Assembly (NCBI GenBank): GCA_963751455.1
Contig: CAVVUN010000001.1
Span: forward strand, 544,001-608,000
Origin: Nitrospirota bacterium
GTDB lineage: Bacteria > Nitrospirota > UBA9217
Reading direction: 5' to 3'
Length of the DNA stretch: 64,000 nt
The notes beneath the pieces are model-generated. The model was given only the letters and a program-made list of their open reading frames with translations. It made no database searches and was not told the origin of the DNA. Shown here piece after piece: positions 18,195 through 50,915 of this stretch; position 1 is the first letter of the stretch, and each line of letters starts with the position of its first letter. The position numbers were made by a program, and so were the translations under genes.

Positions 18195-19628
18195 TCAGGC
18201 CTTTGCCTTCGTTTCGAAATCCTTCTTCATCTTCAGAAAAGTCGGAAGGCCGGTTATCAGCCTGCGCGCGCTGTCAGGCGACTTGAACATGAGCGGACCG
18301 AATTTCCTCACCCAGTTTTTCCCGGTATAGAACCGTTTTATGAACAGGTTATACAGCTCTTCGAGACGCTCTTTTGACTTTATGCCTTTGGGCACGAAAA
18401 CGAAGTTGAGGCAGTTCATCAGCTCCCAGTTTTCATTGAAGCTGCCTTCATCATGTATCGTCTGGTAGATCGGCGAACCCGGGAAGGGCGTGAACTTGGT
18501 CATGTTCATGTCGTCCAGTTCGAGCCCTGTTATGAAGTCGGTTGTTACTTTGATCGTCTCTTCGGTCTCGCCCGGCAGCCCCATGATGAACAGACCCTTT
18601 GCACGGATCCCGGCTTTCTGGATTCTCTGCACTGTTGTCTTCATCTCATTGAAGTCGACTTTGGTCTTGTGCCTGGCCAGTATCTCGGGCGCGCCTGATT
18701 CGATGCCGAGGCTCACCATCCAGCAGCCGGACGACTTCAGCATCCTGAGGAGTTCATCGTCCGCATGGCCCACGCGGACCGCGCAGTTGAACGTCATCCC
18801 GAGCGGCTTCTCGCGGAGCAGCCCGCAGAATTTTTCTATACGCTCTCGGTTGAACGTGAAAAGATCGTCGTAAAAAAACACGTGCCTGATGCCGAAATTC
18901 TTCTTCAGGAACGCCATATGCCCGTAGAGATAGTCCGGAGAATTATAGCGGAAGCTTCTGCGGTACACGGAACGGTCGCAGTACGAGCACTGGTAGGGGC
19001 ATCCCCTGCTCGATATGATCGTTGCCGAAGGAGCTTTCGGATAGTTGAACAGGGCCGCCTCGTATTGCTTCGGAAATCCATCGAGTTTATGATACGCAGG
19101 GAAAGGAAGGCTGTCCAATTCGCACATATCTGTGCGGAGACCGTTGTCCTTTATCTCGCTTCCGTCTCGATAAACCAGGCCCTGGATCGTCTCAGGTTTG
19201 GCTCCGGAAGCAAGCTCATGGATCGCCTTCTCCCCCTCGCCGGTAACGATGTAATCGACTGAAGGATATTTTTCGAGTATCCTTCCGCGCAGCGCTGATA
19301 CGTGGACCCCGCCGATCACGATGGTGGTCTTCGGCAAAATATTCTTAATGGCTTCAGCCTGCCAATACGCGTCCATGAAACTGGATGTCACGGCAGTGAA
19401 CCCGACGATGTCCGGTTCGAAGGCCGCGACGCGGGAAAGGACCTCTGCGGTTCCCGCAAGCTTGACCGGCCTGCGGCAGTTGTAAATCTCAACCTCGATC
19501 CCGCGCTGCTCAAGATATGCCGCCATTGACAATATGCCAATAGGCGCCAGACGTACAGCGGTCTCGGTCCTGTCTTCCATGCCTTCGATCCAGTTGGACC
19601 CGAAGGGATTGATAAGCAGTATTTTCAT
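18195..19628 (-). CDS. B12-binding radical SAM protein
   Basis: MKILLINP...GGVH B12 domain; SRGCPYQCSYC motif. Confidence 0.9.
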   Translation of the reverse strand: MKILLINPFGSNWIEGMEDRTETAVRLAPIGILSMAAYLEQRGIEVEIYNCRRPVKLAGTAEVLSRVAAFEPDIVGFTAVTSSFMDAYWQAEAIKNILPKTTIVIGGVHVSALRGRILEKYPSVDYIVTGEGEKAIHELASGAKPETIQGLVYRDGSEIKDNGLRTDMCELDSLPFPAYHKLDGFPKQYEAALFNYPKAPSATIISSRGCPYQCSYCDRSVYRRSFRYNSPDYLYGHMAFLKKNFGIRHVFFYDDLFTFNRERIEKFCGLLREKPLGMTFNCAVRVGHADDELLRMLKSSGCWMVSLGIESGAPEILARHKTKVDFNEMKTTVQRIQKAGIRAKGLFIMGLPGETEETIKVTTDFITGLELDDMNMTKFTPFPGSPIYQTIHDEGSFNENWELMNCLNFVFVPKGIKSKERLEELYNLFIKRFYTGKNWVRKFGPLMFKSPDSARRLITGLPTFLKMKKDFETKAKA

Positions 19629-19903
19629 GGTAATCCTTTCCCGCCCTGCCTGACACATTGCGCAATGTTTTCCGGATGCCGAAAACCATTCGATTGAAGA
19701 GAACCCGGAGTCGTCGCTTTCTGGATATCGGCAAGCACAAAATGCCCGATCGAAAGCTTTTCGAGGAGAAGCGAATGCTTCCTGTTGACGGCAATGCGGA
19801 CTTCATGACCGCGGTCAAGAAGCGCCTTGCGAATGACAAGGCACTTTGCAATATGGGAAAGCGAATTATTGCCGGGAACGAGAAGATATTTCCGAGCTCG
19901 CAT
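19625..19903 (-). pseudogene. Glycosyltransferase (GT1-like) N-terminal remnant
   Basis: SHIAKCL.I..AL..RGHEV.IA motif; ends after ~90 aa at the next gene start. Confidence 0.6.
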
Positions 19904-19972
19904 GAAAGAAAGGCTCTTTCCTTGAATATCCTAGAAGAATATCTTTACTGCCGGGTACTTTACAAACAGGGG

Positions 19973-20393
19973 TCTTTAATTTTGAGTCAATGTTTGAGAA
20001 ACAAAAAAGTACCAAATGAGTCAATAATATTATCCGCGGATTGCGCAGATTTCGTCGATTAAAACCAACGCCTGATTTAATTTGTTCTATTTAAAAATCT
20101 GCGGATATCTGCGAAATCTGCGGATAAAGCTTTTAAAAATTCCAGTTTTGCTTCATCGGTCTCAGACGTTTTCCCCGTTAAAAACCTTTACTTCGCATTA
20201 TCTTTAAATTTGAGTCAAGTTTTTGAGAAGCTAAAAAGCGTTTACCGCGAAGGCGCGAGGAGCGCGAAGGAAACCATACGACAAAATCTTATTTCTGGTT
20301 TAAACCCGTTTCAATTCCTGCTTTCCTCGCGTCCTTCGCGCCTTCGCGGTTCCAAGGTATTTTTTTCATCGGTCTGAGGCCTTGCCTCGTTAA
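19973..20393. repeat. Two tandem ~200-bp MITE-like units with shared flanks but different internal palindromes
   Basis: Shared tctttaa..ttgagtcaa..tttgagaa..aaaaag head (19973, 20201) and ttcatcggtct...gttaa tail (20152, 20365). Confidence 0.7.
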
Positions 20394-20397
20394 GCTT

Positions 20398-21444
20398 TTA
20401 ATTCCCGATCTTTTTTAGATAAATAGTTTTCTTCTCACCCGTGCAGTCGCAATCAATGCACCGTATCAGCCCTATACGGGAACTTCCCGTGGTTGAGAGC
20501 AGATGAAGTCCTCTCGGATTTTCCTGGATCGGGGAAGCATAGAGATGCTGGTTTCGGAGCATAAGAGCGCCCGCAGCCATGTTGAAAGCGCTGCTGTTCA
20601 GTGTGGTCCCGAACAGAGGCGCGTAGCCCGCCGTGGGGACGCCTGAATCGAGAGAACCGAGGTAAGCCGATTCATCAGTCATCATGCCGTCGGCCGCAAT
20701 GATGTTGAGCTCCGGCCGGGCATTGTCGTCTCCAGGCCGGGTTTCCACCCTGCAGAGCGTCCTCCCGGCCTGCTCGGTTCCCAAAAGGAAAAAGGCGGCG
20801 CCTTCGCCGGGAACATGGCATGTCGGATGAAATGAAAAGGGTGTGATCTTTCCGTCAGGCGCGGGCGATAGCTTCCGTTCCGAAGCATAACCCAGAACAT
20901 CGCCGTACTGGTCGACTGCTCCGACCAGCACGTATTCGCACCGGCCGAGAGCCAGCCATGCTTCCGCGAGCTGCAGCGCTCCGAAGAACGAAAAGCGGAA
21001 TTGCGTCACGGTGAGTGTCGGACCTTTAATGTCGAATGTCGTCGAGATGTACGAAACAGCGGCATTGTGGACCGAGTTCGAAAATAACGTCGGCGATGCA
21101 TTAGCGTCGCCGTAATCCAGGATATCGTCAATAAAGGCGAACGTCGTAACGTGGGCGCCGAACGCGGTCGCGAGAATAATTCCGATATTTTTTTTCGTGA
21201 TGTTCTCGATCCCGCTTTCGCGAAGGGCCTCTGCTGCCGCAAGAACGGACATCTGGCTCAATTTATCGGACCGCCTGATCTTTTTAAGGAGCCCCTTGTC
21301 CGGGCTTGCGTTCACGTCGACCTGGTACGCCAGGCGTTTTCCCGTTGTTTCCGCCGGAGGCTGCCATCCCTCCTTCAGCGCCTGTTCGAGCGCCGAAATC
21401 CCCGCGCCCCGTGTAAATATGATCCCGCTGCCGAGAAGATTCAC
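20398..21444 (-). CDS. Ketosynthase chain-length-factor-like protein
   Basis: RRSDKLS.M, ASPTLFSNSVHNAA; no catalytic Cys/His motifs. Confidence 0.8.
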   Translation of the reverse strand: MNLLGSGIIFTRGAGISALEQALKEGWQPPAETTGKRLAYQVDVNASPDKGLLKKIRRSDKLSQMSVLAAAEALRESGIENITKKNIGIILATAFGAHVTTFAFIDDILDYGDANASPTLFSNSVHNAAVSYISTTFDIKGPTLTVTQFRFSFFGALQLAEAWLALGRCEYVLVGAVDQYGDVLGYASERKLSPAPDGKITPFSFHPTCHVPGEGAAFFLLGTEQAGRTLCRVETRPGDDNARPELNIIAADGMMTDESAYLGSLDSGVPTAGYAPLFGTTLNSSAFNMAAGALMLRNQHLYASPIQENPRGLHLLSTTGSSRIGLIRCIDCDCTGEKKTIYLKKIGN

Positions 21445-22619
21445 GCTGCGGCCTCCCTGTCAAAAACGAGAACGGCATTATTCCCGCCGAATGCGAGCGA
21501 CGTCGAAACCGCCCACCGGCCGGAAACCGATGTTCTCTCGCGGACAGGTTCCAGAGGGATGGCCTCGTCCCGCGTTGAAAATCCGGCACTGGCCGGCACC
21601 CAACCGAGCCGAAGTCCGGCAACGGTAAAAGCGGCTTCGAGCCCCCCGGCTGCGCCCAGTGTATGGCCCGTGAAACCCTTGGTAGACAGCATGACAAGAT
21701 CGGGTCCGAAGATATCTTTGAGCACCTTTCCCTCGACCAGGTCGTTATCGCGCGTTCCCGTGCCGTGAGCGTTTACGAACGCGACCTGTCCGGAATCGGC
21801 GCCGGCCTCAGCGAGCGCCGACTTGACCGCAGCCCTCAGCCCGACGCCCTCGGGGCTCGGCGCGGTCAGATGATAGGCGTCGCTCGAGCAGCCGTATGCC
21901 GTGAGCGCAATCTCGGACGATACTCCCCTTTTGCGCGCTGCTTTCCGCGTTTCGAGAATCAGAATACCCGCCCCTTCCCCCAGGTTCAGACCTTTCCGGT
22001 CCCGGTCAAAGGGCGCGCAGAGTCCCGGGTTTACGATCCCGAGCGCATTGAAGCCACAGTACGGAATATGATTCAGTTCATCTGCTCCCCCGGCAATCGC
22101 AATGTCGCAGAGCTCGCTTTTGAGCCATGAGAGCGCAACACCAATCGCATCCGTTCCGGACGAGCACGCATTTACCACGGTAAGCCTCGGTCCGCGGGCG
22201 CCCGTTTTTGCTGCAATATAGTCGGCGAGGTTGCTCGCAAGGAACCTGTTGACAGCCGTCAGCGGAGCGTTTCCTGTTTCCCGGTAAGCGCGGTAGAATG
22301 ACAAATCGTTCAACTGGCTCGCAACGGACGTTCCGATACAGACCCCGACACGAAAGCCGGAGAGGTCCGAAAGCCGTGCATCCTTCAGCGCCTCGTCGAG
22401 AGCCATGAGCGCCAGTGAGACCGTCCTCAGCCCTTCAAGCCGGTACGCTGCCGGGACGTCTTTAACTTCGAACACGGGATTTCGCAGCGTGGTGGGAAAA
22501 AGCGTGACAGGACCTGCGTTCCGGTCAAGACGGCCAAACGAGTCGAGCGTTTCCGCGAGACCAGACCCGGCTGCCGAGACAACGCCTGAGCCGGTTATGA
22601 GTATTGTATTGTCGTTCAT
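21441..22619 (-). CDS. Beta-ketoacyl-ACP synthase (aryl polyene KS-like)
   Basis: NACSSG, NAHGTGT, KGFTGHTLG, AFGG. Confidence 0.9.
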   Translation of the reverse strand: MNDNTILITGSGVVSAAGSGLAETLDSFGRLDRNAGPVTLFPTTLRNPVFEVKDVPAAYRLEGLRTVSLALMALDEALKDARLSDLSGFRVGVCIGTSVASQLNDLSFYRAYRETGNAPLTAVNRFLASNLADYIAAKTGARGPRLTVVNACSSGTDAIGVALSWLKSELCDIAIAGGADELNHIPYCGFNALGIVNPGLCAPFDRDRKGLNLGEGAGILILETRKAARKRGVSSEIALTAYGCSSDAYHLTAPSPEGVGLRAAVKSALAEAGADSGQVAFVNAHGTGTRDNDLVEGKVLKDIFGPDLVMLSTKGFTGHTLGAAGGLEAAFTVAGLRLGWVPASAGFSTRDEAIPLEPVRERTSVSGRWAVSTSLAFGGNNAVLVFDREAAA

Positions 22620-22659: not shown

Positions 22660-22941
22660 TCAGCGCTTCCTGTTGTCGTAAATGTAATTTGAGATCGTAT
22701 CGATCGAGTAAAAGATTTCTTTACCCTGATCCATGTTCTTGATCTCGATGCCGAAATTACGCTGCAGGAGCACGACGATCTCGACGGCGTCCAGGGAATC
22801 GAGTCCGAGGCCCTCGCCGAACAGGACTTCGTTGTCCTTGATGTCGGCCGGATTGACGTCCTGAAGCGAAAGATCCTTCACGATCATGGCCTTCAGATCT
22901 TTCCGAATTTTTGTCAGTTCCTGTTCCTTGGTATCTGCCAT
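22660..22941 (-). CDS. Acyl carrier protein
   Basis: LFGEGLGLDSLDAVE. Confidence 0.9.
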   Translation of the reverse strand: MADTKEQELTKIRKDLKAMIVKDLSLQDVNPADIKDNEVLFGEGLGLDSLDAVEIVVLLQRNFGIEIKNMDQGKEIFYSIDTISNYIYDNRKR

Positions 22942-23255: not shown

Positions 23256-24155
23256 TTACTCATTCCCCTTCCACATGTCCCTGAAGACGAACCACTGATA
23301 GGGATATTGCGCTGCGTACTCTTCCAGGATGCGGGCAAACTGCTGAATGCATTCCTGCGCTTCTTCCCGTTTCCTGGTCCGTCCGGCCGAAGGCGGATTT
23401 ATCATGTGCGATACATCGACGATATACTTGCGGGCGCTCACCTTTGCCGAAAGGAGCACCACGACCGGGCATTGCGCCGCAGCCGCTATGCTGAATGCGC
23501 CGTGAGGAAAACGGACCTCTCCGCCGAGAAACGATGCAGGCAGCGAGCTGTACCCGTAGGTACGGTCGCCCATGATCGAAACAAGATCTCCCCGGTTCAG
23601 GGCCTTCAACGCTTCCACTACGCCGCCGAGCGAATCGTCCGTGGAAAGGATCTTCACCCGTTCGTCGCTCCCTATTCCCAGCGTTGCTTTCACGGCTGCG
23701 TTATCCTCAGGCCGCATCATTAGGTAGACCGTCTTGTTGAATCTTCTGAGCGCGGTCATGGCCACTTGCCAGTTTCCCACGTGGGCGGTCAGGAGTATCA
23801 CTCCCTTGTTGCCTTCGGCAAGGTAGGTTCTGAGCGCTTCATACCCCTGTATCTGCATGCCGATCTTATCGCCGCCCGCGATGAGGTAGTAGCGATCTAT
23901 CAGACTTTTCCCCTGACTCGCGAACAGCCGATACACGTCGAATCTCCGGCGCAGGCCGCCGTGTTCCGGGAACCTCCTGCGGACATAAGCCATGCCTGTC
24001 TCGACCGCCCCGCTGTCGAACAATGCATAGTAGAGGGCGACTACATAGAGCAGGCTGTAGGCGCCGCCCAGGCCGAAAATTCCGAGTGCCGTCCGGAAAA
24101 ACCAGAACCCGAGACGATTGCCTCTCTTCCGTTCAGCAGCCGTCTTTTGCGCCAT
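23256..24155 (-). CDS. Lipid A lauroyltransferase-like (lysophospholipid) acyltransferase
   Basis: LLTAHVGNW, IMGDR, YPYQWF. Confidence 0.85.
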   Translation of the reverse strand: MAQKTAAERKRGNRLGFWFFRTALGIFGLGGAYSLLYVVALYYALFDSGAVETGMAYVRRRFPEHGGLRRRFDVYRLFASQGKSLIDRYYLIAGGDKIGMQIQGYEALRTYLAEGNKGVILLTAHVGNWQVAMTALRRFNKTVYLMMRPEDNAAVKATLGIGSDERVKILSTDDSLGGVVEALKALNRGDLVSIMGDRTYGYSSLPASFLGGEVRFPHGAFSIAAAAQCPVVVLLSAKVSARKYIVDVSHMINPPSAGRTRKREEAQECIQQFARILEEYAAQYPYQWFVFRDMWKGNE

Positions 24156-25332
24156 AGGCATACCTGGCTTTTCTGATGAGCAGGGAGCTCGCAAATACAA
24201 TCCCCCCGATCACCACGGCAAGAACCGGTCCGATGATGAGCGAACCCAGAAACCATTCGTACAACCGGGAGGAAAATTGCTCGAACACGGTCCTGAAGGA
24301 AAGATCGGTCAGCCATTGGCCGTGCCGGAGATAATACCCGGTCTCGATGCAGAGGGCCGGGACGAGCGGCGGCATGGCGATATGCTGCACATTGAGTGAA
24401 ACCACTTTGTTCAGGTTGAGCCTGAGCGAAACGTACAGGATTACGACCGTATGCAGAAATAGAAGCGGCAGCACGCCGAGAAACACTCCTATCGCTGCTG
24501 AAGCCGCAAGCCCCTCGGGAGTCGCGTTCTCCTCGAGTAGAAGCTTAAGAACCTTCCCGGGATGTTTAAGCAGGGAAAGGTCGAAAGGTCCCTTCATATC
24601 CACGAGTTGTTTATGGGGAAGCGGAATCAGGCGTCTGACCACGAGCATCGAATGGATGCACGAAAGACGGGCGTTGTCGAGAAACGGCTTGAAGCTCGAA
24701 ACACGCTCCTCGGGTTTCGGATACCGCACGGAGACCGGGACCATCCTGAGATCAAGCCCGGCCCAGGCCGCCTTTGCAAGGACCTCCGCCTCGAAGTCGT
24801 AGCGGGCGCCCCTGAAATTGAGGCGGTTGAGATACTGGACCGGATAGACGCGGAATCCGCTCTGGCAGTCGTCTACCGTAATCCCTGCCTCGACCTTCAG
24901 CCAGAAATTTGCGAATTTACGGCCGAACCTGCTGGACGCAGGAACATTTTCCGTATCGAAGTTCCTGCAGCCTATAATAAGCGCCGGTTTCCTGTCCCGC
25001 ATCTCGTCCGCGAAACGCGTGATATCGCGCGGGTCATGCTGCCCATCCGCGTCGATCGTTATCATATACACGCCGCCCCGCTCTTCTATATAACGGGACG
25101 CGGTCAGAATCGCGCGTCCCTTGCCGCGGTTCTTGTCATGTTTCAGAACGACGACATCGAGACCGGCGAGGAGCGCGGCAACGTCGGCATCTGTGCTGCC
25201 GTCATCAACCACGACGACATGTCCCACCATTGACCGGCATCCGGCCACGACCTCTTTTACGGTTGATCCGTTGTTAAAGACCGGCACCGCAACCCATATG
25301 CGGTCATCCTGCGCCGTACTATTTTGCAACAT
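24133..25332 (-). CDS. GT2 glycosyltransferase fused to DUF2062
   Basis: VPVFN, VVDDGSTD, DADGQHDP, DCQSGFRVY; C-terminal hydrophobic DUF2062-like region. Confidence 0.85.
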   Translation of the reverse strand: MLQNSTAQDDRIWVAVPVFNNGSTVKEVVAGCRSMVGHVVVVDDGSTDADVAALLAGLDVVVLKHDKNRGKGRAILTASRYIEERGGVYMITIDADGQHDPRDITRFADEMRDRKPALIIGCRNFDTENVPASSRFGRKFANFWLKVEAGITVDDCQSGFRVYPVQYLNRLNFRGARYDFEAEVLAKAAWAGLDLRMVPVSVRYPKPEERVSSFKPFLDNARLSCIHSMLVVRRLIPLPHKQLVDMKGPFDLSLLKHPGKVLKLLLEENATPEGLAASAAIGVFLGVLPLLFLHTVVILYVSLRLNLNKVVSLNVQHIAMPPLVPALCIETGYYLRHGQWLTDLSFRTVFEQFSSRLYEWFLGSLIIGPVLAVVIGGIVFASSLLIRKARYAYGAKDGC

Positions 25333-26689
25333 GCCTGACCCTTTCCCGCGGCTTCCTTTGAGGCAGAAGCAGATCCCACATCGGCCCGGTATGTCCCATT
25401 TTGTGAAGTATCTGGAGATTCGCATCCAATGCATCAGGCGGAAACACGCAGTGGCGAACGCCTTCAAACGCTTTCTTCAGCCTCTCCTCGAGCCATTTTC
25501 TGTCCACTGCCGGCGACAGATAATAGACCGGTTCGAGAAGTCCATCGTCCTGCTTGATCAATTTTTCGTTGATTGCCAGCCTGGCCAGGGGCGTACCAGG
25601 CAGTATCCGGATGCCCATGAAGATAAAGACCACGCATTTCTGGAGCCCGAGAATATTTTTTATTCCTTCCTCCACGGTCTCCGGCGTCTCTCCCGGCCCG
25701 CCGAACATGAAAAAATGCGAGGCGGCTACGTCGTGGCGCACAAAAAGTTCGGTGCACTCGCTGATGTCGCTGAAGGTGAAGCTTTTGCCCATTCTTCTGA
25801 GCGTCGTGTCGCACGCGGCGTCCGATCCGACTTCAGCTGCGGCAAATCCCGTTTTCTTCATGCGTTCGATGATAGCATCGTTCAGCCCCCGGGGTTTGAA
25901 AAAAGCCATCCAGGGGATTGTAACGTTCCGCCGCTCCATCTCATCGATCACATCGAGGTACGCCCCTTCGTCGTCGTTAAAGACCGAGTCGACGAAAAAA
26001 ATGTACTTGGTTTTGAACTTGTCTCGAAGCAGCTCGATGTCGTCGACTACAGCCCGGGGCTCCCGCCTTCTGAGCTGCGGCCCTTCGAGAACCGGGTAGG
26101 TGCAGTAGACGCATTTGTAGGAGCACCCGCGCTTTGTCTGGACCGACGCTATATTCCCGCTGTGGAGATAGAACTCGAGGAGTTTCGGATCGTACAGCGC
26201 CGACTGTATCTGGTCGCCCGACAACCGGGATTGGGGCACGATGAGCATCTCCCCGGGATAGATCCCGTTTGCGGCGTTGTTCGCAAATTGAACTGCCTGC
26301 ACTTCTCCCTCGCCGATAATGCCGTAATCAGCGCCCGTCTCTTTCAGGATGAGGTCCGGGATGAGCGAAAAACCGGCCCCGCCGAGAATAATCTTGACCT
26401 TCGATACTGTTCGTATCTTCGTTACGATGTTCTTAACATTTTGAATATAATACTGTTCGTTCATCAGGTTCACGTTGTCGATATTGCGGACGGAAATCCC
26501 GACGAGACCGGGCCCAAACTCGGCTACTGCATGCGCCATTGCATCTACAGACGTTTGCTGCTCGAGAAAATCCACCTGCCGGACTTCGTGGCCGGCCCTG
26601 GTGAGCGCAGCTGCGACCATGCTTACACCGAGCGGGTAAATCGGGTAGGGCGACAGGGTTACATTTGCCGAAATCAGCAATATCTTCAT
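25319..26689 (-). CDS. Lipid-biosynthesis B12-binding radical SAM protein
   Basis: YPIYPLG, ISVRNIDN, TKRGCSYKCVYC. Confidence 0.85.
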   Translation of the reverse strand: MKILLISANVTLSPYPIYPLGVSMVAAALTRAGHEVRQVDFLEQQTSVDAMAHAVAEFGPGLVGISVRNIDNVNLMNEQYYIQNVKNIVTKIRTVSKVKIILGGAGFSLIPDLILKETGADYGIIGEGEVQAVQFANNAANGIYPGEMLIVPQSRLSGDQIQSALYDPKLLEFYLHSGNIASVQTKRGCSYKCVYCTYPVLEGPQLRRREPRAVVDDIELLRDKFKTKYIFFVDSVFNDDEGAYLDVIDEMERRNVTIPWMAFFKPRGLNDAIIERMKKTGFAAAEVGSDAACDTTLRRMGKSFTFSDISECTELFVRHDVAASHFFMFGGPGETPETVEEGIKNILGLQKCVVFIFMGIRILPGTPLARLAINEKLIKQDDGLLEPVYYLSPAVDRKWLEERLKKAFEGVRHCVFPPDALDANLQILHKMGHTGPMWDLLLPQRKPRERVRHVAK

Positions 26690-28085: not shown

Positions 28086-28751
28086 TTAATCCGTGTAAAC
28101 GGTTGTCTCCAATTTTCGTATCATGTCCGGCAAACTGATACTCGATTCTATAACAGATCGAACAGCAGTCAGCTCGGACAGAACTCCCGAGTCACGTTCT
28201 GAACTTTGCGACAGGACAAAGAAAACCGGTTCGTCCACTTCCGCGAGTCCTGCCAGGATAATCGGTGACTCGCCTGAAGCGATCATACCTGACGCGGTGT
28301 CCAGAACCCGGACAAGGGAAAGACCGCCCGCGTAATACATCGGCCCCTGCAAGCCGAAGTGAATCGCCGCTTCTCCGAGCGGGCTGGAAGGCAGCGTGTA
28401 AATAAAAAGATTCCCTCTCGACAGCTTCCTCCCGCCGTTTATATAATCACGGAAGAATTCGAGGTCCGCCCGGAGCGACCCCTCGCCGTTCGTCCCGATG
28501 ATGCCGATGTCCCGCTTTCGCTCCGGGGAATATTCGATGCCTGCATCCTGCATTGCAAGCGCAACGGCATAGGCAGTCGATCTGGAAACAGCGTCCATAC
28601 GCCCGAAATTCTTGAACGGGTGCGAAAAGATTCCCTTTTGCGGAAGCGAGTCCGCATCTTCGCCGTTCTCAAAAGCCTGCCGAAGACCGCTCCTGACGCA
28701 GCCGCAGCCCTCTTGTGTGAGCCAGCCTATTCCCCGGATGTAGATAGCCAT
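28086..28751 (-). CDS. Ketosynthase N-terminal-domain (CLF-like) protein
   Basis: FGRMD, LFIYTLPSSPLGEAAI; no catalytic motifs. Confidence 0.75.
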   Translation of the reverse strand: MAIYIRGIGWLTQEGCGCVRSGLRQAFENGEDADSLPQKGIFSHPFKNFGRMDAVSRSTAYAVALAMQDAGIEYSPERKRDIGIIGTNGEGSLRADLEFFRDYINGGRKLSRGNLFIYTLPSSPLGEAAIHFGLQGPMYYAGGLSLVRVLDTASGMIASGESPIILAGLAEVDEPVFFVLSQSSERDSGVLSELTAVRSVIESSISLPDMIRKLETTVYTD

Positions 28752-28763
28752 ATCATCTATAGG

Positions 28764-28832
28764 TGTCATTTCGAACGCAGTGAGAAATCCTTCCAGTCGA
28801 AACGATAGATTTCTCCCTTCGGTCGAAATGAC
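28764..28832. repeat. REP-like palindrome
   Basis: gtcatttcga...gagaaatc / gatttctc...tcgaaatgac. Confidence 0.7.
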
Positions 28833-43245: not shown

Positions 43246-43983
43246 TCACATATATATGCCCCCATTGATGCCGATGACTTGACCGACGATATATGATGCG
43301 TTGTCGGAACAAAGAAATTCGACCACTGCCGCAACCTCATCAGGCTTACCGAAGCGCCCGGCTGGAATAGAGGGCAATATTCTGTCGACCGGGAGGTCTT
43401 TCGTCATATCGGTCTCAATAAAACCCGGCGCAACGCAATTAACAATAATGCCCCGTTTGCAGACTTCGGCGGCAAGCGACTTTGTGGCGCCGATCAGCCC
43501 TGCCTTGGCTGCGGAATAGTTTACTTGCCCGGCAAGGCCGCTTTGTCCGGCTGTAGAAGCGATATTAATAATGCGGCCCGAACGCCTTTTCATCATCCCT
43601 ACCAGGACGGCCTTGGTCACGAAAAAAAAACCGAGAAGATTTACATTCGTGACGCTTTCCCAATCCTGGCGCGTCATCCACATCATGAGCGTATCCTTGG
43701 TAAGACCGGCATTATTGACGAGGACATTGGGAACGGACTTGGCAAGCATGGGTTCCAGGGTTTCAAAGACGCTTTTCTCATCGCAAACGTCGAATGGAAG
43801 CAGAACACATTCCCTTCCCAGGCCGTTTATTTCTTCCTGTATCTTTTTTGCTGCTTCGTGGTTACTGTGATAATTGACCCAGATATCATAGCCCGCCCTG
43901 GCAAGACGCAGAGCGATGGCGGCGCCAAGCCCCCTGCTGGCGCCTGTAATAAGTGCTGTTCGGCGATGGTTGTCTTCGCTCAT
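43246..43983 (-). CDS. fabG: 3-oxoacyl-ACP reductase
   Basis: TGASRGLG, NNAG, YSAAK; start moved to ATG 43983. Confidence 0.9.
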   Translation of the reverse strand: MSEDNHRRTALITGASRGLGAAIALRLARAGYDIWVNYHSNHEAAKKIQEEINGLGRECVLLPFDVCDEKSVFETLEPMLAKSVPNVLVNNAGLTKDTLMMWMTRQDWESVTNVNLLGFFFVTKAVLVGMMKRRSGRIINIASTAGQSGLAGQVNYSAAKAGLIGATKSLAAEVCKRGIIVNCVAPGFIETDMTKDLPVDRILPSIPAGRFGKPDEVAAVVEFLCSDNASYIVGQVIGINGGIYM

Positions 43984-44488
43984 TATTCCCCCGGATCTGA
44001 GACGTCCTTGCAACTTACTTCGACAAGTACAACGTCGTCCATTACAAAGGTCCTGATCTGTCACAAAGGCGTATAAATTGAAACAAATTGAAACCTTATA
44101 ATACCTTCATCACCATATTTTTGTCAATTCATATTTTCCAAAGGATATTAAGTTGACTTTACTCTGAGGCTTCAAAGGAGGCGTAATGAAAAGTTTTATG
44201 AACGTTGCACGAATTTTCAACGTCATCACAATAATGTTTAGACATATTCGCAGTCTGATAAGCTCATATTTACTTTCGTCCGCTATTCAATTCACTAGAT
44301 TTCAGTCATCCACGGGTTCTTCAACCCCGGCTATTGGGACCGTTTATAATTATTTGACAAACCGATCCGGACAAATTATTATCATCCGGATTTGAAAGAA
44401 TAGGGACTGACCCCTTTATACCTTCTTGCAAACGCGTTCGCGAATATATATATATGTAAACCTCGATCGGTAACAAAGCGAATACGTA

Positions 44489-44519
44489 TTGCACTTTTTT
44501 TCAATAAATGCTATATAAT
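44489..44519 (+). promoter_or_regulatory. Candidate sigma70 promoter for dar operon
   Basis: TTGCAC-17 nt-TATATA(AT) with TG extension; implies the real darA start lies downstream of 44508. Confidence 0.45.
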
Positions 44520-45533
44520 TTCGATTGCAGATGGAAGGTGGATTGGCCTGTGCCCCGGTCGGGATTCGATTCTAAGTCAAAATATAAAAAACGCGTTCTT
44601 GTCTTACATTATTCCCAAACCGGTCAGCTTAATTCAGCCCTGCGCAAGATGATGACGCCGCTGGAGGAGCTGCCTGATCTAGAGCTGATTTGGGAAGAGC
44701 TTAAGCCTGTCAAGCCATACCCCTTTCCCTGGCCTGTTTTCGATTTTTTCGAGGTATTCCCCGAATCCGTGCATATGGATGCGCCGGACCTGCAGCCTGT
44801 TGCCTTTGATCCGGACGGGAGGTTCGACCTCGTGATCATGGCCTATCAGGTATGGTTTTTGTCCCCGTCATTGCCTGTGACCGGCTTTCTTAAATCCGGG
44901 GCAGCGCGGGTCCTTCAAGGAAAGCCTGTCGTTACCCTTATCGTATGCAGGAACATGTGGCTTACGGCCCAGGAAAAGATGAAGGGCCTGATTGCATCAA
45001 ATGGCGGACATCTTATAGACAATGTGGTTCTTGTGGACCGGGGCGCACCGTGGACCACGTTTGTAACAACTCCGCGCTGGCTGTTGACCGGAAAGAAAAA
45101 CGGCTTTTGGGGTATATTCCCTCCCGCAGGAGTAAGCCGGGAAGACATTGACGGTGCGGCAAGGTTCGGCAGGGCGCTTGCGGATGGGCTCAGCAAACTG
45201 GAGGGAAGGCCTCCTTATGCATCTTTACTGAACGGTCTCGGCGCTGTCCGGGTAAACCCCGGGTATATCATGGGTGAAAAGATAGCCCACAGGAGTTTCT
45301 ATATCTGGGGGAAGCTGCTTAAGAGCGTGGGTGGTCCGGGTACTCTGCGGCGAAGGATTATGCTTCTGGTGTATATTGTCTTCCTGGTAACTATGATACT
45401 TACCGTGCTTCCGTTGAGCATAGTTGTCCGGGCTGTTTTAAGGCCTTTTTTTCGCCGAAAACTCGACGCGGAGGTTGCAAGGCTGGAGGGTCCATCAGGT
45501 TCTTCTCTCGAGCGTATAATTTTGTATGAATAA
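44508..45533 (+). CDS. darA: Dialkylresorcinol-condensing enzyme
   Basis: VLVLHYSQTGQL, PYPFPW..F...FPE, YQVWFLSPSLP, CRNMW..AQ; precedes KAS III; exact start uncertain. Confidence 0.85.
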   Translation: MLYNFDCRWKVDWPVPRSGFDSKSKYKKRVLVLHYSQTGQLNSALRKMMTPLEELPDLELIWEELKPVKPYPFPWPVFDFFEVFPESVHMDAPDLQPVAFDPDGRFDLVIMAYQVWFLSPSLPVTGFLKSGAARVLQGKPVVTLIVCRNMWLTAQEKMKGLIASNGGHLIDNVVLVDRGAPWTTFVTTPRWLLTGKKNGFWGIFPPAGVSREDIDGAARFGRALADGLSKLEGRPPYASLLNGLGAVRVNPGYIMGEKIAHRSFYIWGKLLKSVGGPGTLRRRIMLLVYIVFLVTMILTVLPLSIVVRAVLRPFFRRKLDAEVARLEGPSGSSLERIILYE

Positions 45534-46695
45534 TGAAAACTGTTTGACGAATAAAGTTTTTATTGCAGATATAGCGTCCTTTTTGCCGAATGCGCCGGTC
45601 GTGAACGACAAGATTGAGGATGTCCTCGGCATGGTTGACGGGCAGAAGTCGCGCTCTCGCAGGATTGTCCTCAGGAGCAACGGGATAATAACGCGCCATT
45701 ATGCCATTGATCCGACATCCGGAAAATTCACTCACAACAACGCAAAGATGACCGCTGAGGCTGTGCGCGAATTATTAAAAAAAAGCAGTGTCAGGCTGGA
45801 TGAAATAGATTGCCTCAGTTGCGGAACTTCGAGTCCCGATCAGTTGCAGCCCGCGCACGGCTGCATGGTCCAGGGCGAGCTCTCCATGCCGCCAACAGAG
45901 GTTGCGACGACATCGGGCGTCTGTCTTTCCGGGATCACGGCAATGAAGTATGCGTACACGAGCATAGCATCAGGGATGACCGGCTCCGCTGTCGCAACCG
46001 GGTCGGAGTTTGCGTCGAGCGCAATGCGGTCTTCATACTTCGAAACAGATGACCCGGCAAAGTACGAAGAGTTGAAAAATAAACCGTCCCTTGCCTTTGA
46101 AAAAGACTTCCTCAGATGGATGCTCTCCGACGGCGCCGGCGCAGCGCTTTTGACGAACAAACCGAACTCCGGCCGCACCTCTCTTCGCATAGACTGGATC
46201 GACATCCTTTCTTTTTCAGGAAACCTGCCGGTGTGCATGTATGCCGGCGGCGTCAAACGTGAAGACGGCTCCTTCGAAGGAATGCGTGAAGTTGACGATC
46301 CCCAAAAGCTGCTGAAGGAGCATTACCTCGTATTGAAGCAGGATGCACGCATCCTTGACGAGCATATTCTACCCGTGTCGGCACAAACCCTTGTGACTAT
46401 TGCGGCAAAACGAGGTCTCCAACCGGACGAAATCACGTGGTTCCTGCCGCACTATTCGTCGGAATATTTCAGGACAGGGCTTCATGACGCATTTGCGGAT
46501 GGCGGTTTCCCTATTCCGTTCGAAAAATGGTTCACCAATCTTCCCGTAAAAGGGAATGTGGGGGCCGCCTCTATCTATCTTATCATTGAAGAACTTTTTT
46601 ACTCGGGACGCCTCAAACCGGGGGACCGTCTTCTCTGCTACATCCCGGAGAGCGCCCGCTTTTCTATCGGATACATGTTGTTGACGGTAGTATAA
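45526..46695 (+). CDS. darB: DarB-type beta-ketoacyl-ACP synthase III
   Basis: GVCLSG, FEKDFLRWMLSDGAGA, PHYSS, GNVG.AS, PESARF. Confidence 0.85.
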   Translation: MNNENCLTNKVFIADIASFLPNAPVVNDKIEDVLGMVDGQKSRSRRIVLRSNGIITRHYAIDPTSGKFTHNNAKMTAEAVRELLKKSSVRLDEIDCLSCGTSSPDQLQPAHGCMVQGELSMPPTEVATTSGVCLSGITAMKYAYTSIASGMTGSAVATGSEFASSAMRSSYFETDDPAKYEELKNKPSLAFEKDFLRWMLSDGAGAALLTNKPNSGRTSLRIDWIDILSFSGNLPVCMYAGGVKREDGSFEGMREVDDPQKLLKEHYLVLKQDARILDEHILPVSAQTLVTIAAKRGLQPDEITWFLPHYSSEYFRTGLHDAFADGGFPIPFEKWFTNLPVKGNVGAASIYLIIEELFYSGRLKPGDRLLCYIPESARFSIGYMLLTVV

Positions 46696-46719: not shown

Positions 46720-47133
46720 ATGAAAGCCAAAGACGTGCCTCAGGAAGAATGGATTACAGGTCACGGCCGCCGGGCGTGCTATGCCGAGGATGACAGCGGC
46801 AGATATGTCGTTGTGCCGAGCAAGGGATGGGAGGTCGAGAAAATCGTCAATGCCCAGGCCCATGCTGAAATCCAGCGCAGGCTTGAAGAGGTGAAGCGAG
46901 AAGTGGCTGCGGGCAAGGCAAGTCCCCTGAAATATCACATGGAAAATAACATGATGGACGTCGCCCTCCTTGCCGCGACATCCGGGTTCTGGAAATGCCA
47001 GGTCAGAAGGCATCTTCAGCCCGGGCGTTTTAACGCTCTTGACAACAAGTCCTTGGAGCTTTACGCAAAGATCTTTCGCATTTCAGTAGCGGACCTTCGG
47101 AAACTCCCTTCCGGAGAAGGGAGTTCATCATAA
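46720..47133 (+). CDS. Conserved hypothetical protein of dar/flexirubin-type clusters
   Basis: YA.D..G.Y....S.GWE...SPL.YHM...MD...LA pattern; operon position. Confidence 0.65.
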   Translation: MKAKDVPQEEWITGHGRRACYAEDDSGRYVVVPSKGWEVEKIVNAQAHAEIQRRLEEVKREVAAGKASPLKYHMENNMMDVALLAATSGFWKCQVRRHLQPGRFNALDNKSLELYAKIFRISVADLRKLPSGEGSSS

Positions 47134-48135
47134 TTGTCTAAAACCTTTGAACACCGCCATTCCGGACACTGTGAATCCGGGGCGCTGTCCGCCCTTCTCA
47201 GGGACAGAGGCCTTGATCTGAGCGAGCCGATGGTCTTCGGACTCTCCGGAGGCGTCTTTTTTGTGCACGTCCCCTTCCTCAAGATGGGCGGTATACCGCT
47301 GACGGCTTACCGGGACGCCCCCGGCGCCATTGTAAAAAAAGCCTGCAAGCGGCTTGCTATCGGAGTGAAGACGATGCGTTTCCGCGATGAGGCTGAAGGA
47401 ATGGAAACACTCGATTCCCTGCTGGCGAATGGGATGTCGGTCGGACTCAGGACCAACGTGTATTGGCTTCCGTATTTCCCGAGAGAAATGCGCTTTCAGT
47501 TTAACGCCCACCATCTCGTTGTGTTCGGCAAGGAAGGCGACGATTACCTGATAAGCGATCCGGTCTTTGACCACATCGTGAAGTGCCCGGCCGCCGATCT
47601 TAGGCGGGCGCGTTTTGCGAAAGGCATCTTTGCGCCGAAGGGCCATCTGTTCTATCCTGTTTCCATTCCGGCCTCGTTCGACATGAAAACTGCAGTCAGG
47701 AAGAGCTTGCGCGAAAGCTGCAAACGCATGACCTCGATACCCCTCCCGTTTTTCGGGATCCGGGGCATGCACTACCTGGCGCGCGAGTTCAGGAGATGGC
47801 CGGTAAAAATGGACGCTGCAAAGGCCGTCCTTAATGTCGGTTCAGTGGTTCGCATGCAGGAAGAGATCGGCACCGGCGGGGCGGGCTTCCGTTTCATGTA
47901 TGCCGCTTTTTTGCAGGAGGCCTCGGAGACCATGGGCCTCCCTGCGCTAAAAGAAGCCTCCAAAATGATGGGTGAGACCGGGGACCGCTGGAGGGCCTTT
48001 GCCGTAAAAGGCGCCCAACTCTGCAAAGGCCACATCAGCGGGAACGAAGTTTTCAATGAACTTTCCGATATGCTGAAAGATTGCGCGGACAGGGAAAAGA
48101 AAATCTACGCTCTTATACTCAAGATGATCGCATGA
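47134..48135 (+). CDS. BtrH-like (peptidase-fold, DUF4872) protein
   Basis: HCESG, FNAHH.VV.G, SDP, EEIGTGGAGFR. Confidence 0.8.
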   Translation: MSKTFEHRHSGHCESGALSALLRDRGLDLSEPMVFGLSGGVFFVHVPFLKMGGIPLTAYRDAPGAIVKKACKRLAIGVKTMRFRDEAEGMETLDSLLANGMSVGLRTNVYWLPYFPREMRFQFNAHHLVVFGKEGDDYLISDPVFDHIVKCPAADLRRARFAKGIFAPKGHLFYPVSIPASFDMKTAVRKSLRESCKRMTSIPLPFFGIRGMHYLAREFRRWPVKMDAAKAVLNVGSVVRMQEEIGTGGAGFRFMYAAFLQEASETMGLPALKEASKMMGETGDRWRAFAVKGAQLCKGHISGNEVFNELSDMLKDCADREKKIYALILKMIA

Positions 48136-48139: not shown

Positions 48140-48406
48140 TTATCCCGGCTGAATCGCGTCCGCAAGGGCGTTCACGGATTTTATGATCCGCATGGCCTCC
48201 TTGCTGTCGTGTATCTGCAGGCCGTATTCCAGCTTCAACGCCACGCACAATTCGAGGGTGTCCAGGGAGTCAAGGCCCAGGACTGAATCCTGGCCTAAAA
48301 GGGGCAAGTCGTCCTGCACGGATTCGGGAGCGGCATCGATCCGGCATGTTTGTAAAATCAGCTTCTTTATCTTCAGCTTAAATTCAGTATCCTGCGAACC
48401 CTTCAT
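48140..48406 (-). CDS. Acyl carrier protein (DarC candidate)
   Basis: LGLDSLDTLE. Confidence 0.85.
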   Translation of the reverse strand: MKGSQDTEFKLKIKKLILQTCRIDAAPESVQDDLPLLGQDSVLGLDSLDTLELCVALKLEYGLQIHDSKEAMRIIKSVNALADAIQPG

Positions 48407-48472
48407 TACTGTAAAACCTCCTCATTTTTGCGATTCTCGCAATACGCCTTACCACAAAGCACACACGCAATC

Positions 48473-48667
48473 TTCGTAATATTCAGCTTCTTTCAGAGCG
48501 ACCTTAAGACAAATCTGAGAAAAAACTTCTATCCGCAGATTTCACAGATGGACGCAGATTTTAAAACCAGAGTTCGGGTTTTGTTTTGCCTTGCGAAATC
48601 TGCCTGCACCCGGCGCTTACGAGTGCCCGCGCGAGTGCAGGGTGCGTAATCTCTGGATAAAAAAATG
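48473..48667. repeat. MITE-like family A repeat with nested 42-bp palindrome
   Basis: Direct repeat of 50925-51079 plus insertion ctgcac...gtgcagggtgc. Confidence 0.75.
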
Positions 48668-48704
48668 ACCTGAGTAGTTAGAAATCTTCAAGCATTAAAT
48701 AACA

Positions 48705-49952
48705 TCAGGAACGGCTCGTGATGGTCCTGAACCGCCAGACCGCGACGGACGCACAAACAACGGAAAAAGCGATAAGGGCCAGCGCCTCCGGCATTACGTC
48801 CCGTACGGTTCCGTTGCGTACGAAAATATCAAGGAAGCCCTCAAGTCCCCAGGACATCGGAGATATTACGCTCAACTTTTGCATGAAAGACGGCATCTCG
48901 AACGTGGGTACCATCACCCCGCCGAGCGCCCCGAAGATAATGGAGGAAGTCCCGCCAAAGGTAGTGGCCTGCTCAACGGTTTTGCAAAAGGTGGAAACCA
49001 TGAGGCCGTAGCTTACGGCCGCAACGCTTGCGCCGCAGGCAAGGACCGCCAGCGCCCCCGGAGAGTTCCCTATGACCAGCGATTCCCCGCCCAAAAGAGG
49101 CACAATATACATTCCGACAAAGAGCATCAGTATCAGCTGGGCCTGGTTTATGAAGAAGAAGGGAATGGCCTTGCCCATCACTATTGCCCATGCAGGCACA
49201 GGCATGGACATGACCCTGACCAGGCTTCCCTGCTGACGTTCCTTGATAAAGGCCACGGAAAGAGGGATTACTATAAAAAACATCGCAAAGAGAGACCAGC
49301 CCGGCACACTTTGCTGGACCGAAGTCGGCATCTCCGCGTTTTCCCCTGAAATGTTTTCCGCCTTCAAGTCGGCAAATATGCGGGTCTTTTTAATGTCCTG
49401 CGCCACGGCGGAATTTCCAAAAGGCATTGCTGCCGCGACTGAAATCAGTCTGTCGGCCAGGAGCTTCAATTCCACTCCCAGGACTGTCTGGTTGACGACC
49501 GAGATTATGAGGTTTCGGTGGTCGGCCCGCATCGCGGGGTCAACGAGCACGCGCACGTTTACGGTCTGCAATCCCGCTTTCGGCGACTTTCCACCCATTT
49601 CCCGGCCTGCGGTCCGGGTGGACCCCTCCGGGATAATGATCCCGAACTTGTATACGCCGGCGGCTATGTCTTTCTTTATTTGGGCCTCGTCAATGCCCTC
49701 GGCCTTTTTCACATTTATGTTTTTGACTTCGGAAACCCCTTTGACAATGGCCTTCCCCACCTTGCCGCCGTCCAAATCCAGTATTGCTCCGTTGAAGACA
49801 GCACCGCCGCCCTTTTCCTTGAAAACGTTCTGAAGGGCCAGGGACATGATGAGCACAAAGGCAAGAGGCATGGCAAACAGGATCAGAAGTGCCTCCCTGT
49901 CCCTGAAAATGATCTTTACTTCCTTTGTTATCGATGCCAGGAGTTTTTCCAC
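48705..49952 (-). CDS. ABC-2 exporter permease
   Basis: KE....RD...L..LF.MP; VPGW.LF.MFF; GALGG.MVP. Confidence 0.9.
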   Translation of the reverse strand: MEKLLASITKEVKIIFRDREALLILFAMPLAFVLIMSLALQNVFKEKGGGAVFNGAILDLDGGKVGKAIVKGVSEVKNINVKKAEGIDEAQIKKDIAAGVYKFGIIIPEGSTRTAGREMGGKSPKAGLQTVNVRVLVDPAMRADHRNLIISVVNQTVLGVELKLLADRLISVAAAMPFGNSAVAQDIKKTRIFADLKAENISGENAEMPTSVQQSVPGWSLFAMFFIVIPLSVAFIKERQQGSLVRVMSMPVPAWAIVMGKAIPFFFINQAQLILMLFVGMYIVPLLGGESLVIGNSPGALAVLACGASVAAVSYGLMVSTFCKTVEQATTFGGTSSIIFGALGGVMVPTFEMPSFMQKLSVISPMSWGLEGFLDIFVRNGTVRDVMPEALALIAFSVVCASVAVWRFRTITSRS

Positions 49953-49961
49953 TGCAAGCCC

Positions 49962-50915
49962 CTATTCGCGAACGACCGTTCCCGTGAGCGACATGAAGAA
50001 TTGTTCGAGATTCGCCGCACCGTGCACAAGCGACAGTATGCCTATGCCGCGGTGTTCAAACAGCGCTATAACGTCCGCAATGGTCCTGGTCGGCGCACGG
50101 CTTATCAACGTGAGCGTCTTGTCTTTACATCCAACCATGGATACGCTGGGCAGGGCCATGAGCTGCTTCTCCACTGCTTCTGAAATCCGTGCGTCGGTCT
50201 TTATTTCTATAACGCCTTGCCCATGACGTGCGAGAAGTTCAGCTACCTTTCCCGTCGAGATAATCTTTCCCCTGTCCATGATGGCTATCTCTTCGCACAG
50301 ATATTCGACCTCTTCCATATAATGGCTCGTGTATACGATGGTCATCCCGTCCGCGTTCATATGCTTCAGGCTTTCATAAATGAAGTGCCTGGACTGGGGG
50401 TCTATGCCGACCGTGGGCTCATCAAGAAAAAGTATCTGCGGGCTGTGAATGAGGCCGACCGCAAGGCTCAAGCGGCGTTTTAACCCGCCGGAGAAGGTGT
50501 CGACGCGTTTTTCCGCCAGGTTGTTCATGTTGGCTACATCAAGGCAGCAATCAATTCTTTCGCTGAGGTAAGCGCCCTTTAGTCCCTGCATTTTTCCGAA
50601 AAATTTCAGGTTCTCACGAGCGGTCAGTGTGGGATACAAGGCTATGTCCTGCGGCACATACCCTATTGTCCCCTTGATCTTTGCTATGCCGTCTTTTGTA
50701 GAAATGCCGGATATGAAAACGTCTCCTGAGTCCGGTCTGAGCAGGGTGCAGAGGATCGACAACATCGTCGTCTTTCCCGCGCCGTTGGGGCCGAGAAGGC
50801 CGAAGAAGCTGCCTTTCCGCACGGAAAGGGTTATTCCATCCACAGCTGGCTTGTCGGACCCTGTGTACGTCTTGTAGACGGATGATATCTCTATTATGTT
50901 TTGCGAATTAAACAT
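49962..50915 (-). CDS. ABC-2 exporter ATP-binding protein
   Basis: GPNGAGKT, FSGG, LDEPT. Confidence 0.95.
   Translation of the reverse strand: MFNSQNIIEISSVYKTYTGSDKPAVDGITLSVRKGSFFGLLGPNGAGKTTMLSILCTLLRPDSGDVFISGISTKDGIAKIKGTIGYVPQDIALYPTLTARENLKFFGKMQGLKGAYLSERIDCCLDVANMNNLAEKRVDTFSGGLKRRLSLAVGLIHSPQILFLDEPTVGIDPQSRHFIYESLKHMNADGMTIVYTSHYMEEVEYLCEEIAIMDRGKIISTGKVAELLARHGQGVIEIKTDARISEAVEKQLMALPSVSMVGCKDKTLTLISRAPTRTIADVIALFEHRGIGILSLVHGAANLEQFFMSLTGTVVRE

Follow-up and report, generated by a model that had tools for sequence, protein, structure and literature searches.

The stretch of DNA analysed here (the window; 64,000 nucleotides, G000:C1:544001-608000) comes from a Nitrospirota genome, G000, of 5.7 Mb in 15 contigs, and contains at positions 18195-50915 a gene cluster that combines aryl polyene (APE)-like machinery, a dialkylresorcinol (DAR; dar) module and four radical S-adenosylmethionine (SAM) enzymes. 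Genes were assigned by Pfam and NCBIfam scans of the open reading frames (ORFs) of the window. Every gene named in a preliminary description of this DNA was found, the combination of APE-like, Dar and radical SAM proteins claimed there is supported by the family scans, and the gene for a DUF3261-like protein is an addition to its list (Table 1). Two genes that it had called hyp and btrH are real and can be identified more sharply, as a member of the DarG family and as DarH. In four ketosynthases (KSs) the catalytic Cys motif and the second His motif are intact, the first His motif having been read from the translations, and two KS-like proteins without these motifs resemble chain length factors (CLFs). 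The DSL motif is present in all three acyl carrier proteins (ACPs), CX3CX2C in all four radical SAM enzymes, and DarB retains its catalytic Cys, His and Asn motifs. The C-terminus of the SPASM radical SAM enzyme is an ApeP-like hot-dog domain (PF22817, with a weak match to 6QSR_B, E 0.017). DarA had no Pfam or NCBIfam match, and its assignment rests on its position, on its resemblance (38-66% identity) to genes that lie ahead of darB and on a match to a flavodoxin-like profile (E 2e-4); a single-sequence structure prediction of DarA gave a predicted local distance difference test score (pLDDT) of 43 and was unusable. At the beginning of darA (44508-44600) there is no ATG where the closest homologs start, the frame is open upstream, and the GTG at 44550 stands behind a Shine-Dalgarno-like sequence. 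Across the loci compared, ACP3 and the ABC-2 pair accompany the dar module. The promoter-like sites are consensus matches only, 8 sites being found against 7.6 expected overall.

Table 1. Features of the cluster, with positions in the window (GT, glycosyltransferase; kin, relatives of the host).
Feature	Position	Strand	Remarks
B12-binding radical SAM 'a', accessory, native arm	18195..19628	-	PF02310+PF04055; CPYQCSYC; 67-80% to kin
GT1 glycosyltransferase stub	19625..19903	-	first 87 of 408 codons; 55% identical to the 408-aa GT1
CLF-like inactive KS, partner of KS1	20398..21444	-	ApeC-like by position
KS1, intact	21441..22619	-	best NCBIfam PRK09185
ACP1	22660..22941	-	PF00550; PRK09184 above cut-off
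LpxL-like acyltransferase	23256..24200	-	PF03279; longest ORF, start probably ~24160
GT2-DUF2062 glycosyltransferase	24133..25332	-	PF00535+PF09835
B12 radical SAM, TIGR04072 (rSAM_ladder_B12)	25319..26689	-	623.7 bits, cut-off 360
B12 radical SAM 'c'	26686..27957	-	cluster's most conserved gene: 81-87% to kin, 61-67% to Desulfobacterota-type clusters
Short CLF-like inactive KS	28086..28769	-	
KS2, intact	28854..29972	-	
4HBT-type thioesterase, ApeK-like	29969..30454	-	PF13279
DUF3261-like lipoprotein, ApeN/LolB-like	30485..31156	-	weak PF11659 match, E 4e-5; position conserved
LolA-like carrier	31344..32045	-	PF03548; NF053544 103 < 125
Radical SAM/SPASM fused to ApeP-like hot-dog domain	32042..33532	-	PF22817; in ammonia-lyase slot between ligase and apeP
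FlxY/phenylacetate-CoA-ligase-like aryl-acid ligase	33525..34871	-	best match NF053551, 476 bits < 520
MMPL/RND exporter	34906..37323	-	native but relocated relative to kin
Double hot-dog dehydratase (ApeP-like + ApeI-like)	37385..38254	-	
PlsC-like acyltransferase, ApeD-like	38292..39032	-	foreign-type arm
ACP2	39051..39311	-	foreign-type arm
KS3, intact	39319..40557	-	best NCBIfam PRK09116; groups with G031/G091/G127, not kin
CrtI-like FAD oxidoreductase	40548..41996	-	PF01593
KS4, FabB-like, intact	41986..43212	-	absent from kin cluster stretches compared
FabG/FlxB-like ketoreductase	43246..43983	-	NF053542 314 < 340; FabG above cut-off
Candidate divergent sigma-70-like promoter pair	44098..44382	.	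both TTGACA...TATTAT, 11 of 12
DarA-like aromatase	44508..45533	+	likely start GTG 44550
DarB/StlD ring-forming ketosynthase, intact	45526..46695	+	PRK06816 543 > 450; StlD E 6e-120
DarG-family protein	46720..47133	+	NF053536 149 > 70
DarH, BtrH-related acyltransferase	47134..48135	+	NF053550 449 > 300
ACP3, dar-module ACP	48140..48406	-	
ABC-2 permease, dar module	48705..49952	-	
ABC ATPase, dar module	49962..50915	-	

The comparison with kin covered 41 genomes (G000 included), 24 of them of the same family, and clusters were compared gene by gene in 7 same-family genomes and 10 others. From radical SAM 'a' to the MMPL exporter, the genes are mostly 46-87% identical to those of kin and 23-67% to those of other genomes, the DUF3261 gene being 36-59% identical to kin. 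For plsC, ACP2, KS3, crtI and fabG, identities are 29-56% to kin versus 45-82% to G031, G091 and G127. KS3 of the window groups with these three genomes (support 100) and a clade of window and kin is rejected by the approximately unbiased test (p-AU 0.0006), while the TIGR04072 gene lies inside the kin clade (support 100), so that the phylogenetic check proposed in the preliminary description yields a KS3 of Desulfobacterota type and a TIGR04072 of kin type. In the DarB tree (57 rows, three duplicate loci dropped) the window groups with L001, G091 and G127 (support 99). In G011 and G014, an FMN reductase-TetR-ABC stretch, which in the window lies beyond the ABC pair, directly adjoins fabG, at 75-85% identity. 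The identities, the trees and the flank synteny in G011 and G014 thus indicate that the segment at 37.4-50.9 kb, roughly 13.5 kb long, took the place of the native fabG-plsC arm and that the dar module came in with it; with respect to the direction of transfer, the trees are not rooted on this point. The left arm is, from its sequence relationships, native to the host family. Since KS3 and DarB both group with G091 and G127, the elongation arm and the dar arm likely arrived together.

A second rearrangement is indicated by the GT1 stub, which ends 18 bases before the next gene and directly abuts the last radical SAM gene. At this position G011 has about 9 kb extra, and the stub, compared with G011, marks a deletion of this size. 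The extra genes (L051:3852-11650, on G011:C11) encode a hydrolase-radical SAM protein (an alpha/beta-hydrolase::radical SAM/SPASM fusion), an ACP, an unknown protein (440 aa, no Pfam match), a FAD oxidoreductase, an HpnR-like B12 radical SAM enzyme and an acyl-CoA ligase. A search of the rest of G000 for the five accessory enzymes, which did not include the ACP, gave no ortholog. Four radical SAM enzymes are indeed present, as had been described, yet because of the deletion they are a reduced set, kin carrying five to seven. Imperfect palindromes resembling repetitive extragenic palindromes or miniature inverted-repeat transposable elements occur at 18055-18194, 19904-20397, 22942-23255, 48407-48704 and 50916-51171; they fall into two or more families, each repeat giving from tens to about 190 blastn matches in the genome, and some are near the scar and the right junction.

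TIGR04072 was above cut-off in 19 of the 41 kin-search genomes (G000 included) and in 11 of the 24 of the same family, and DarB was detected in none of the 40 relatives of G000. The hybrid in this host is, judged by this distribution, a local acquisition. A further sample consisted of 401 genomes from the phylum of G042, a Syntrophus metagenome-assembled genome (MAG) used as seed, and includes relatives that are not independent. In this sample, DarB is encoded in 31 genomes. TIGR04072 passes its cut-off in 80, and 24 of these form a window-like subgroup with more than 540 bits. DarB was present in 17 of these 24 versus 14 of the remaining 377, kin not being independent, and TIGR04072 lies at most 30 kb from darB in 8 of the 31 DarB genomes. 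On G127:C99, a near-complete window gene set and darABGH form one operon-like run. The preliminary description had made its reading depend on co-occurrence of darAB with the KS block in relatives, which was found in 8 other genomes but in none of the host's own kin. The hybrid is, by gene content, a recurring cluster type. The TIGR04072 scores in Desulfobacterota are bimodal (>540 versus 360-440 bits), which suggests two subfamilies, and G000 has a second TIGR04072-like gene of lower score (310 bits; G000:C2:638379-639719). One Syntrophus locus (L070-L071; G042:C5, 28.6-42.5 kb) contains two darB genes and three darG-darH pairs, and a 600-aa beta-lactamase-fold hydrolase is encoded in the dar module of G042 and G041.

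The absence of an ammonia-lyase gene, remarked on for the cluster in the preliminary description, holds for the whole genome: no match to the aromatic ammonia-lyase family PF00221 was obtained anywhere in G000, which is estimated to be 100% complete, whereas 5 of 14 control genomes were positive. For a survey of starter enzymes, 51 genomes picked for DarB or TIGR04072, and G000, were searched for the FlxY-like ligase, the SPASM enzyme and PF00221. A FlxY-like ligase is encoded in 23 genomes: in 16 it is followed immediately by the SPASM gene and a lyase is absent, six (G030, G031, G091, G127, G232, G242) have a lyase and no SPASM ortholog, and one, which is fragmented, has neither. In all 52 genomes, a lyase occurs in 0 of the 18 with a SPASM ortholog of at least 45% identity versus 10 of the 34 others. 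The order in G232, plsC-ligase-lyase-apeP-lolA-mmpL-DUF3261-apeI-TE (TE, thioesterase), corresponds to plsC-ligase-SPASM::apeP-lolA-mmpL-DUF3261-apeI-TE in kin; G030 shows lyase-apeP-lolA-mmpL up to a contig end, and G041, G042 and G230, in which ligase, lyase and SPASM gene are all missing, have plsC-apeP-lolA. These cluster lyases of sister genomes score below the cut-off of every lyase model. In G382, a 36% SPASM homolog is located upstream of a 4-coumarate-CoA-ligase-like gene. Chorismate lyase (UbiC) was found neither in G000 nor in the 5 SPASM genomes searched for it, and no Pfam match to a XanB2/YjgF-like chorismatase was obtained among the cluster ORFs. Those close homologs of the SPASM enzyme that carry an organism name are from Nitrospirota, and the ESM atlas returned only generic SPASM clusters for it. 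A second independent contrast between lyase and SPASM enzyme was sought through the ligase family of G399 and not established, G196 and G405 having no ortholog. No published account of such a swap was found in the open-access literature. That the SPASM enzyme makes a cinnamoyl-type aryl starter and so replaces the ammonia-lyase is put forward tentatively on these gene neighbourhoods, and we lean somewhat against it.

A similar exchange is seen in related loci at the position of DarA, of which the window itself has an ordinary copy. In 30 darB loci from 31 DarB genomes (the G129 locus, with a DarA fragment at a contig end, was not cut out), darA is directly upstream of darB in 15 and a 431-aa cobalamin radical SAM enzyme is encoded there in the other 15. 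Genome-wide, the 15 radical-SAM-type genomes, and no others, have an ortholog of the 431-aa enzyme with at least 48% identity; the remaining 15 are precisely those with full-length DarA, and 13 genomes, 4 of them of radical-SAM type, show only weak matches (22-31%) to the DarA N-terminus. A family of about 230 aa that resembles this flavodoxin-like N-terminus occurs in 13 genomes with and without darB; a 228-aa gene at L001:1823-2509 is a possible member. Examples of the 431-aa enzyme are L010:8713-10002, L022:8707-10002, L091-L103, L105, L114 and L135-L214, and its homologs include proteins of Geoalkalibacter halelectricus and Desulfuromonas versatilis. From metagenomes, 80 of 330 confirmed loci were kept. 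Where at least 350 bases were available downstream of the 431-aa enzyme, darB came next (74 of 74); six loci were too short, one of which still showed darB, and none of the 80 carried darA. In the DarB tree, 18 radical-SAM-type DarB proteins fall into a 98-supported group of 20, and a single clade is not rejected (p-AU 0.13); these DarB sequences suggest that the replacement of DarA by the radical SAM enzyme probably had one origin. Repeated swaps, of lyase and SPASM enzyme or of DarA and radical SAM enzyme, could not be demonstrated on the FlxY or DarB trees, and an explanation of the DarA swap by oxygen was not supported, as aa3/cbb3 oxidases occur in 5 of 15 DarA-type and 8 of 15 radical-SAM-type genomes. 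The predicted structure of the 431-aa enzyme (pLDDT 90) is about equally similar to TsrM, OxsB, MgmA, AprD4, CysS and TokK, and this modelled fold fails to separate a methylase from an oxidase.

Comparison with published systems, as far as the accessible parts of the sources describe them, places the cluster between two known kinds: it is flexirubin-like in the logic of its genes but departs from flexirubin clusters in the lyase, and it has the sequence characteristics of 'ladderane-like' clusters. Flexirubin clusters of Chitinophaga pinensis and Flavobacterium johnsoniae (PMC3992019) share with it the FlxY-like ligase, FlxB-like reductase, several KSs, dehydratases, thioesterase, acyltransferase, LolA, glycosyltransferase, exporter and DarA/B/G/H. 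In comparison with that description, the window genome has no FlxA ammonia-lyase, and its cluster has no recognised FlxW and no deacetylase but four additional radical SAM enzymes. The flexirubin-specific models for FlxY, FlxB, LolA2 and DarB were best or near-best matches in the window, all below cut-off, and DarB with DarA, DarG and DarH, which count as flexirubin criteria, are present. With the 'ladderane-like' type II fatty acid synthase (FASII) clusters of Desulfotalea, Geobacter, Pelobacter and Kuenenia (Rattray 2009, PMC2649909), the window shares TIGR04072, further radical SAM genes, a phytoene-dehydrogenase-like gene, a phenylacetate-CoA-ligase-like gene, catalytically dead FabF paralogues and a glycosyltransferase; what it adds is the dar module and a Nitrospirota host. 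The likeness to such clusters of anaerobes claimed in the preliminary description is supported by the TIGR04072 score in a FASII-like cluster. In Desulfurivibrio alkaliphilus AHT2, a sulfur-cycling anaerobe compared by table listing alone, a polyene cluster (DaAHT2_1113-1137) adjoins a DAR cluster (1139-1144), and Table S7 assigns it no phenylalanine/histidine ammonia-lyase (PAL/HAL) or chorismatase type (Schöner 2014, PMC3949708). APE and APE lipid (APEL) clusters of E. coli and Xenorhabdus (PMC8253772, bioRxiv 2020.12.19.423268) share KS, CLF, ACPs, ApeI/P-type dehydratase, ketoreductase, thioesterase, two acyltransferase activities, GT2, RND exporter and Lol homologues, and the APE core (KS, ACP, CLF, ApeI/P dehydratase, ketoreductase, ApeM transporter) is present in the window by family homology, not orthology. 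Relative to these clusters as described, the window shows no ApeB SAM methyltransferase and, with regard to the 4-hydroxybenzoate starter of the ape type, no UbiC; it uses another ligase family and has extra KS pairs, radical SAM enzymes and the dar module. Arcuflavin and xanthomonadin (PMC3949708) share the polyene + DAR hybrid logic and a starter route without lyase, but a XanB2/YjgF-type chorismatase has no counterpart among the cluster genes. The claim that the cluster is undescribed therefore stands for the product, for which no published description was found in the open-access literature, but not for the architecture, which the accessible parts of Rattray 2009 and Schöner 2014 (Table S7) and the TIGR04072 family already contain. 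The kind is in print as an orphan, expressed by Cariaco Basin MAGs with no function assigned (bioRxiv 2022.12.20.521206), and this copy differs in being a recombined mosaic. As to the host, dsrAB agree with the suggested anaerobe, whereas an aa3-type oxidase above cut-off means that strict anaerobiosis is not shown. At G000:C2:327037-329219 dsrA is frameshifted into two pieces beside dsrB, and several other heme-copper-family genes are present in G000.

By analogy with these systems, we consider there to be an even chance that this one recombined locus makes a methylated aryl-polyene-resorcinol ester, predicted to be a flexirubin-like lipid of the outer membrane. As in APE and flexirubin formation, where FlxA and FlxY initiate the polyene according to the accessible text of PMC3992019, the FlxY-like ligase would load an aryl acid onto an ACP. 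Two KS/CLF pairs, two further KSs, FabG and the ApeI/P-type dehydratase would extend the starter to a polyene; KS/CLF heterodimers are also found in an anammox cluster (bioRxiv 2026.05.19.726425, in the part available). DarB would condense a beta-ketoacyl and an enoyl chain to a carboxy-cyclohexanedione and DarA would aromatise this to the resorcinol, as stated for DarB (with thioester substrates) and DarA-type enzymes in the accessible part of PMC6836626. The MMPL exporter, LolA and DUF3261 proteins and the ABC-2 pair would export the product. With less support, DarH may transfer the polyene to the resorcinol, the GT2, LpxL-like and PlsC-like enzymes may in addition assemble a glycolipid anchor of the APEL type, and the three B12 enzymes may add C-methyl groups. 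They are read as methylases from their B12 radical SAM class; a methyltransferase of ApeB type had no Pfam match within the cluster. The 'radically methylated' product of the preliminary description thus follows from enzyme class alone, and its 'cyclised' product has no specific support. The weakest step is starter synthesis by the SPASM enzyme, which might be a radical deamination of an aromatic amino acid or an alpha,beta-dehydrogenation of an arylpropionate. A full radical version of the flexirubin pathway, in which the SPASM enzyme replaces the lyase with its 4-methylideneimidazole-5-one (MIO) group, the cobalamin radical SAM enzyme replaces DarA in sister clusters and a methylated polyene-resorcinol membrane lipid results, we regard as doubtful.

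Several observations weigh against the polyene-resorcinol ester or against the starter role of the SPASM enzyme. No ORF of the cluster was recognised as a FlxW candidate in the Pfam and NCBIfam scans, and the window has lost as many as six of the native accessory genes. It also has no equivalent of the KS/CLF pair that the most similar complete dar modules (G198, G407) carry between darH and the ACP. In 11 same-family genomes the KS/radical SAM block is kept without DarB; evidently, a resorcinol is not needed for the native arm to persist. With respect to the SPASM enzyme, 12 of its 16 genomes belong to one family and the lyase/SPASM label needs only 1 change on the FlxY tree (support 78), and the contrast may therefore be a single event. 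In one SPASM clade (support 99; G196, G405 and 10 metagenome loci) no FlxY gene is adjacent; its members are 54-58% identical to the window enzyme, nearer than the G310 type, and adjoin plsC or dar genes. G382 has lyases beside its 36% SPASM homolog, although these are HutH-like. Among solved structures, no close relative showing the function of the SPASM enzyme was found, and the B12 enzymes had family-level matches only. FlxW we take to be associated with peptidase C45; a C45 gene at 56144-57213, 5 kb away, was rejected as FlxW, being split over two frames and not co-distributed. The split is a frameshift, real or a sequencing error, and an intact paralog is present on contig C6.

It is also conceivable, although unlikely, that the locus makes two separate products, the native arm an APEL-type aryl-polyene glyco- or phospholipid and the dar module a free dialkylresorcinol serving as signal or antioxidant. 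Kin keep the set of KS, radical SAM, GT2, acyltransferase and export genes without darB, the window has counterparts of ApeD/J/K/L/M/N, which serve anchoring and export of APE lipids (PMC8253772 and the APEL preprint, bioRxiv 2020.12.19.423268, in their accessible parts), and in G258 and G196 dar modules lie apart from KS clusters. However, darB is strongly linked to this cluster type, both at genome level and physically, DarH, ACP3 and the ABC pair imply that a larger product is formed with acyl transfer and exported, and elongation genes came along with the dar block. In our view, a polyunsaturated or cyclised (ladderane-like) lipid that is not aromatic is an improbable product; in its formation, the SPASM::ApeP and B12 enzymes would act on an ACP-bound chain and the ligase would load a simple acid. 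Such a lipid would agree with a TIGR04072 above cut-off, with the CrtI-like gene, the ligase and the inactive FabF paralogues, all of which have parallels in the clusters of Rattray 2009 (PMC2649909), with the fusion of SPASM to a dehydratase subunit, with the one ligase-less SPASM clade beside KS3/plsC and with G041, G042, G230 and G423, which are entirely without ligase. Yet no ladderanes are reported for Desulfotalea in the accessible part of the same paper, the SPASM enzyme is unfused in G310, G359, G198 and G407, its fusion is explicable by the position of the lyase slot upstream of apeP, and aromatic ammonia-lyases are encoded in sister clusters that have this ligase too. A decaying or mis-assembled patchwork without a single product, which the deletion scar, the lost kin genes, the relocated MMPL gene, a contamination estimate of 5.37% and the occasional frameshifts in dsrA and C45 genes might suggest, is very improbable. 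The ORFs that remain all have their full length and their motifs, none of 40 kin-matched loci (mostly of this region) is split, and the foreign block is bordered on either side by kin-like, syntenic genes, a pattern that one chimeric join would not produce.

Outside the cluster, the window contains IS200-like/REP-type transposases (1594-2463 and 11322-12095), a DndB-like (DGQHR) gene (8363-9589), a possibly truncated gene of the phage integrase family (9957-11288) and an AbiV/HEPN gene (62653-63234), mostly in stretches of low GC content that flank the cluster.

The cluster of the window is real and coherent, but as a recombined and partly deleted copy it is not the cleanest representative of its kind. 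It illustrates how whole modules are exchanged between phyla by such clusters. What the 'ladderane-like' clusters of non-anammox anaerobes produce is a question standing since 2009. If the radical flexirubin pathway were true, it would account for these long-orphan clusters, whose hosts are sulfate reducers, syntrophs and Nitrospirota. In that case, the SPASM enzyme would be a new aryl-starter enzyme, either a radical tyrosine/phenylalanine deaminase or an arylpropionate desaturase, and the 431-aa cobalamin radical SAM enzyme of sister clusters a new aromatase; either replacement would be new radical SAM chemistry.

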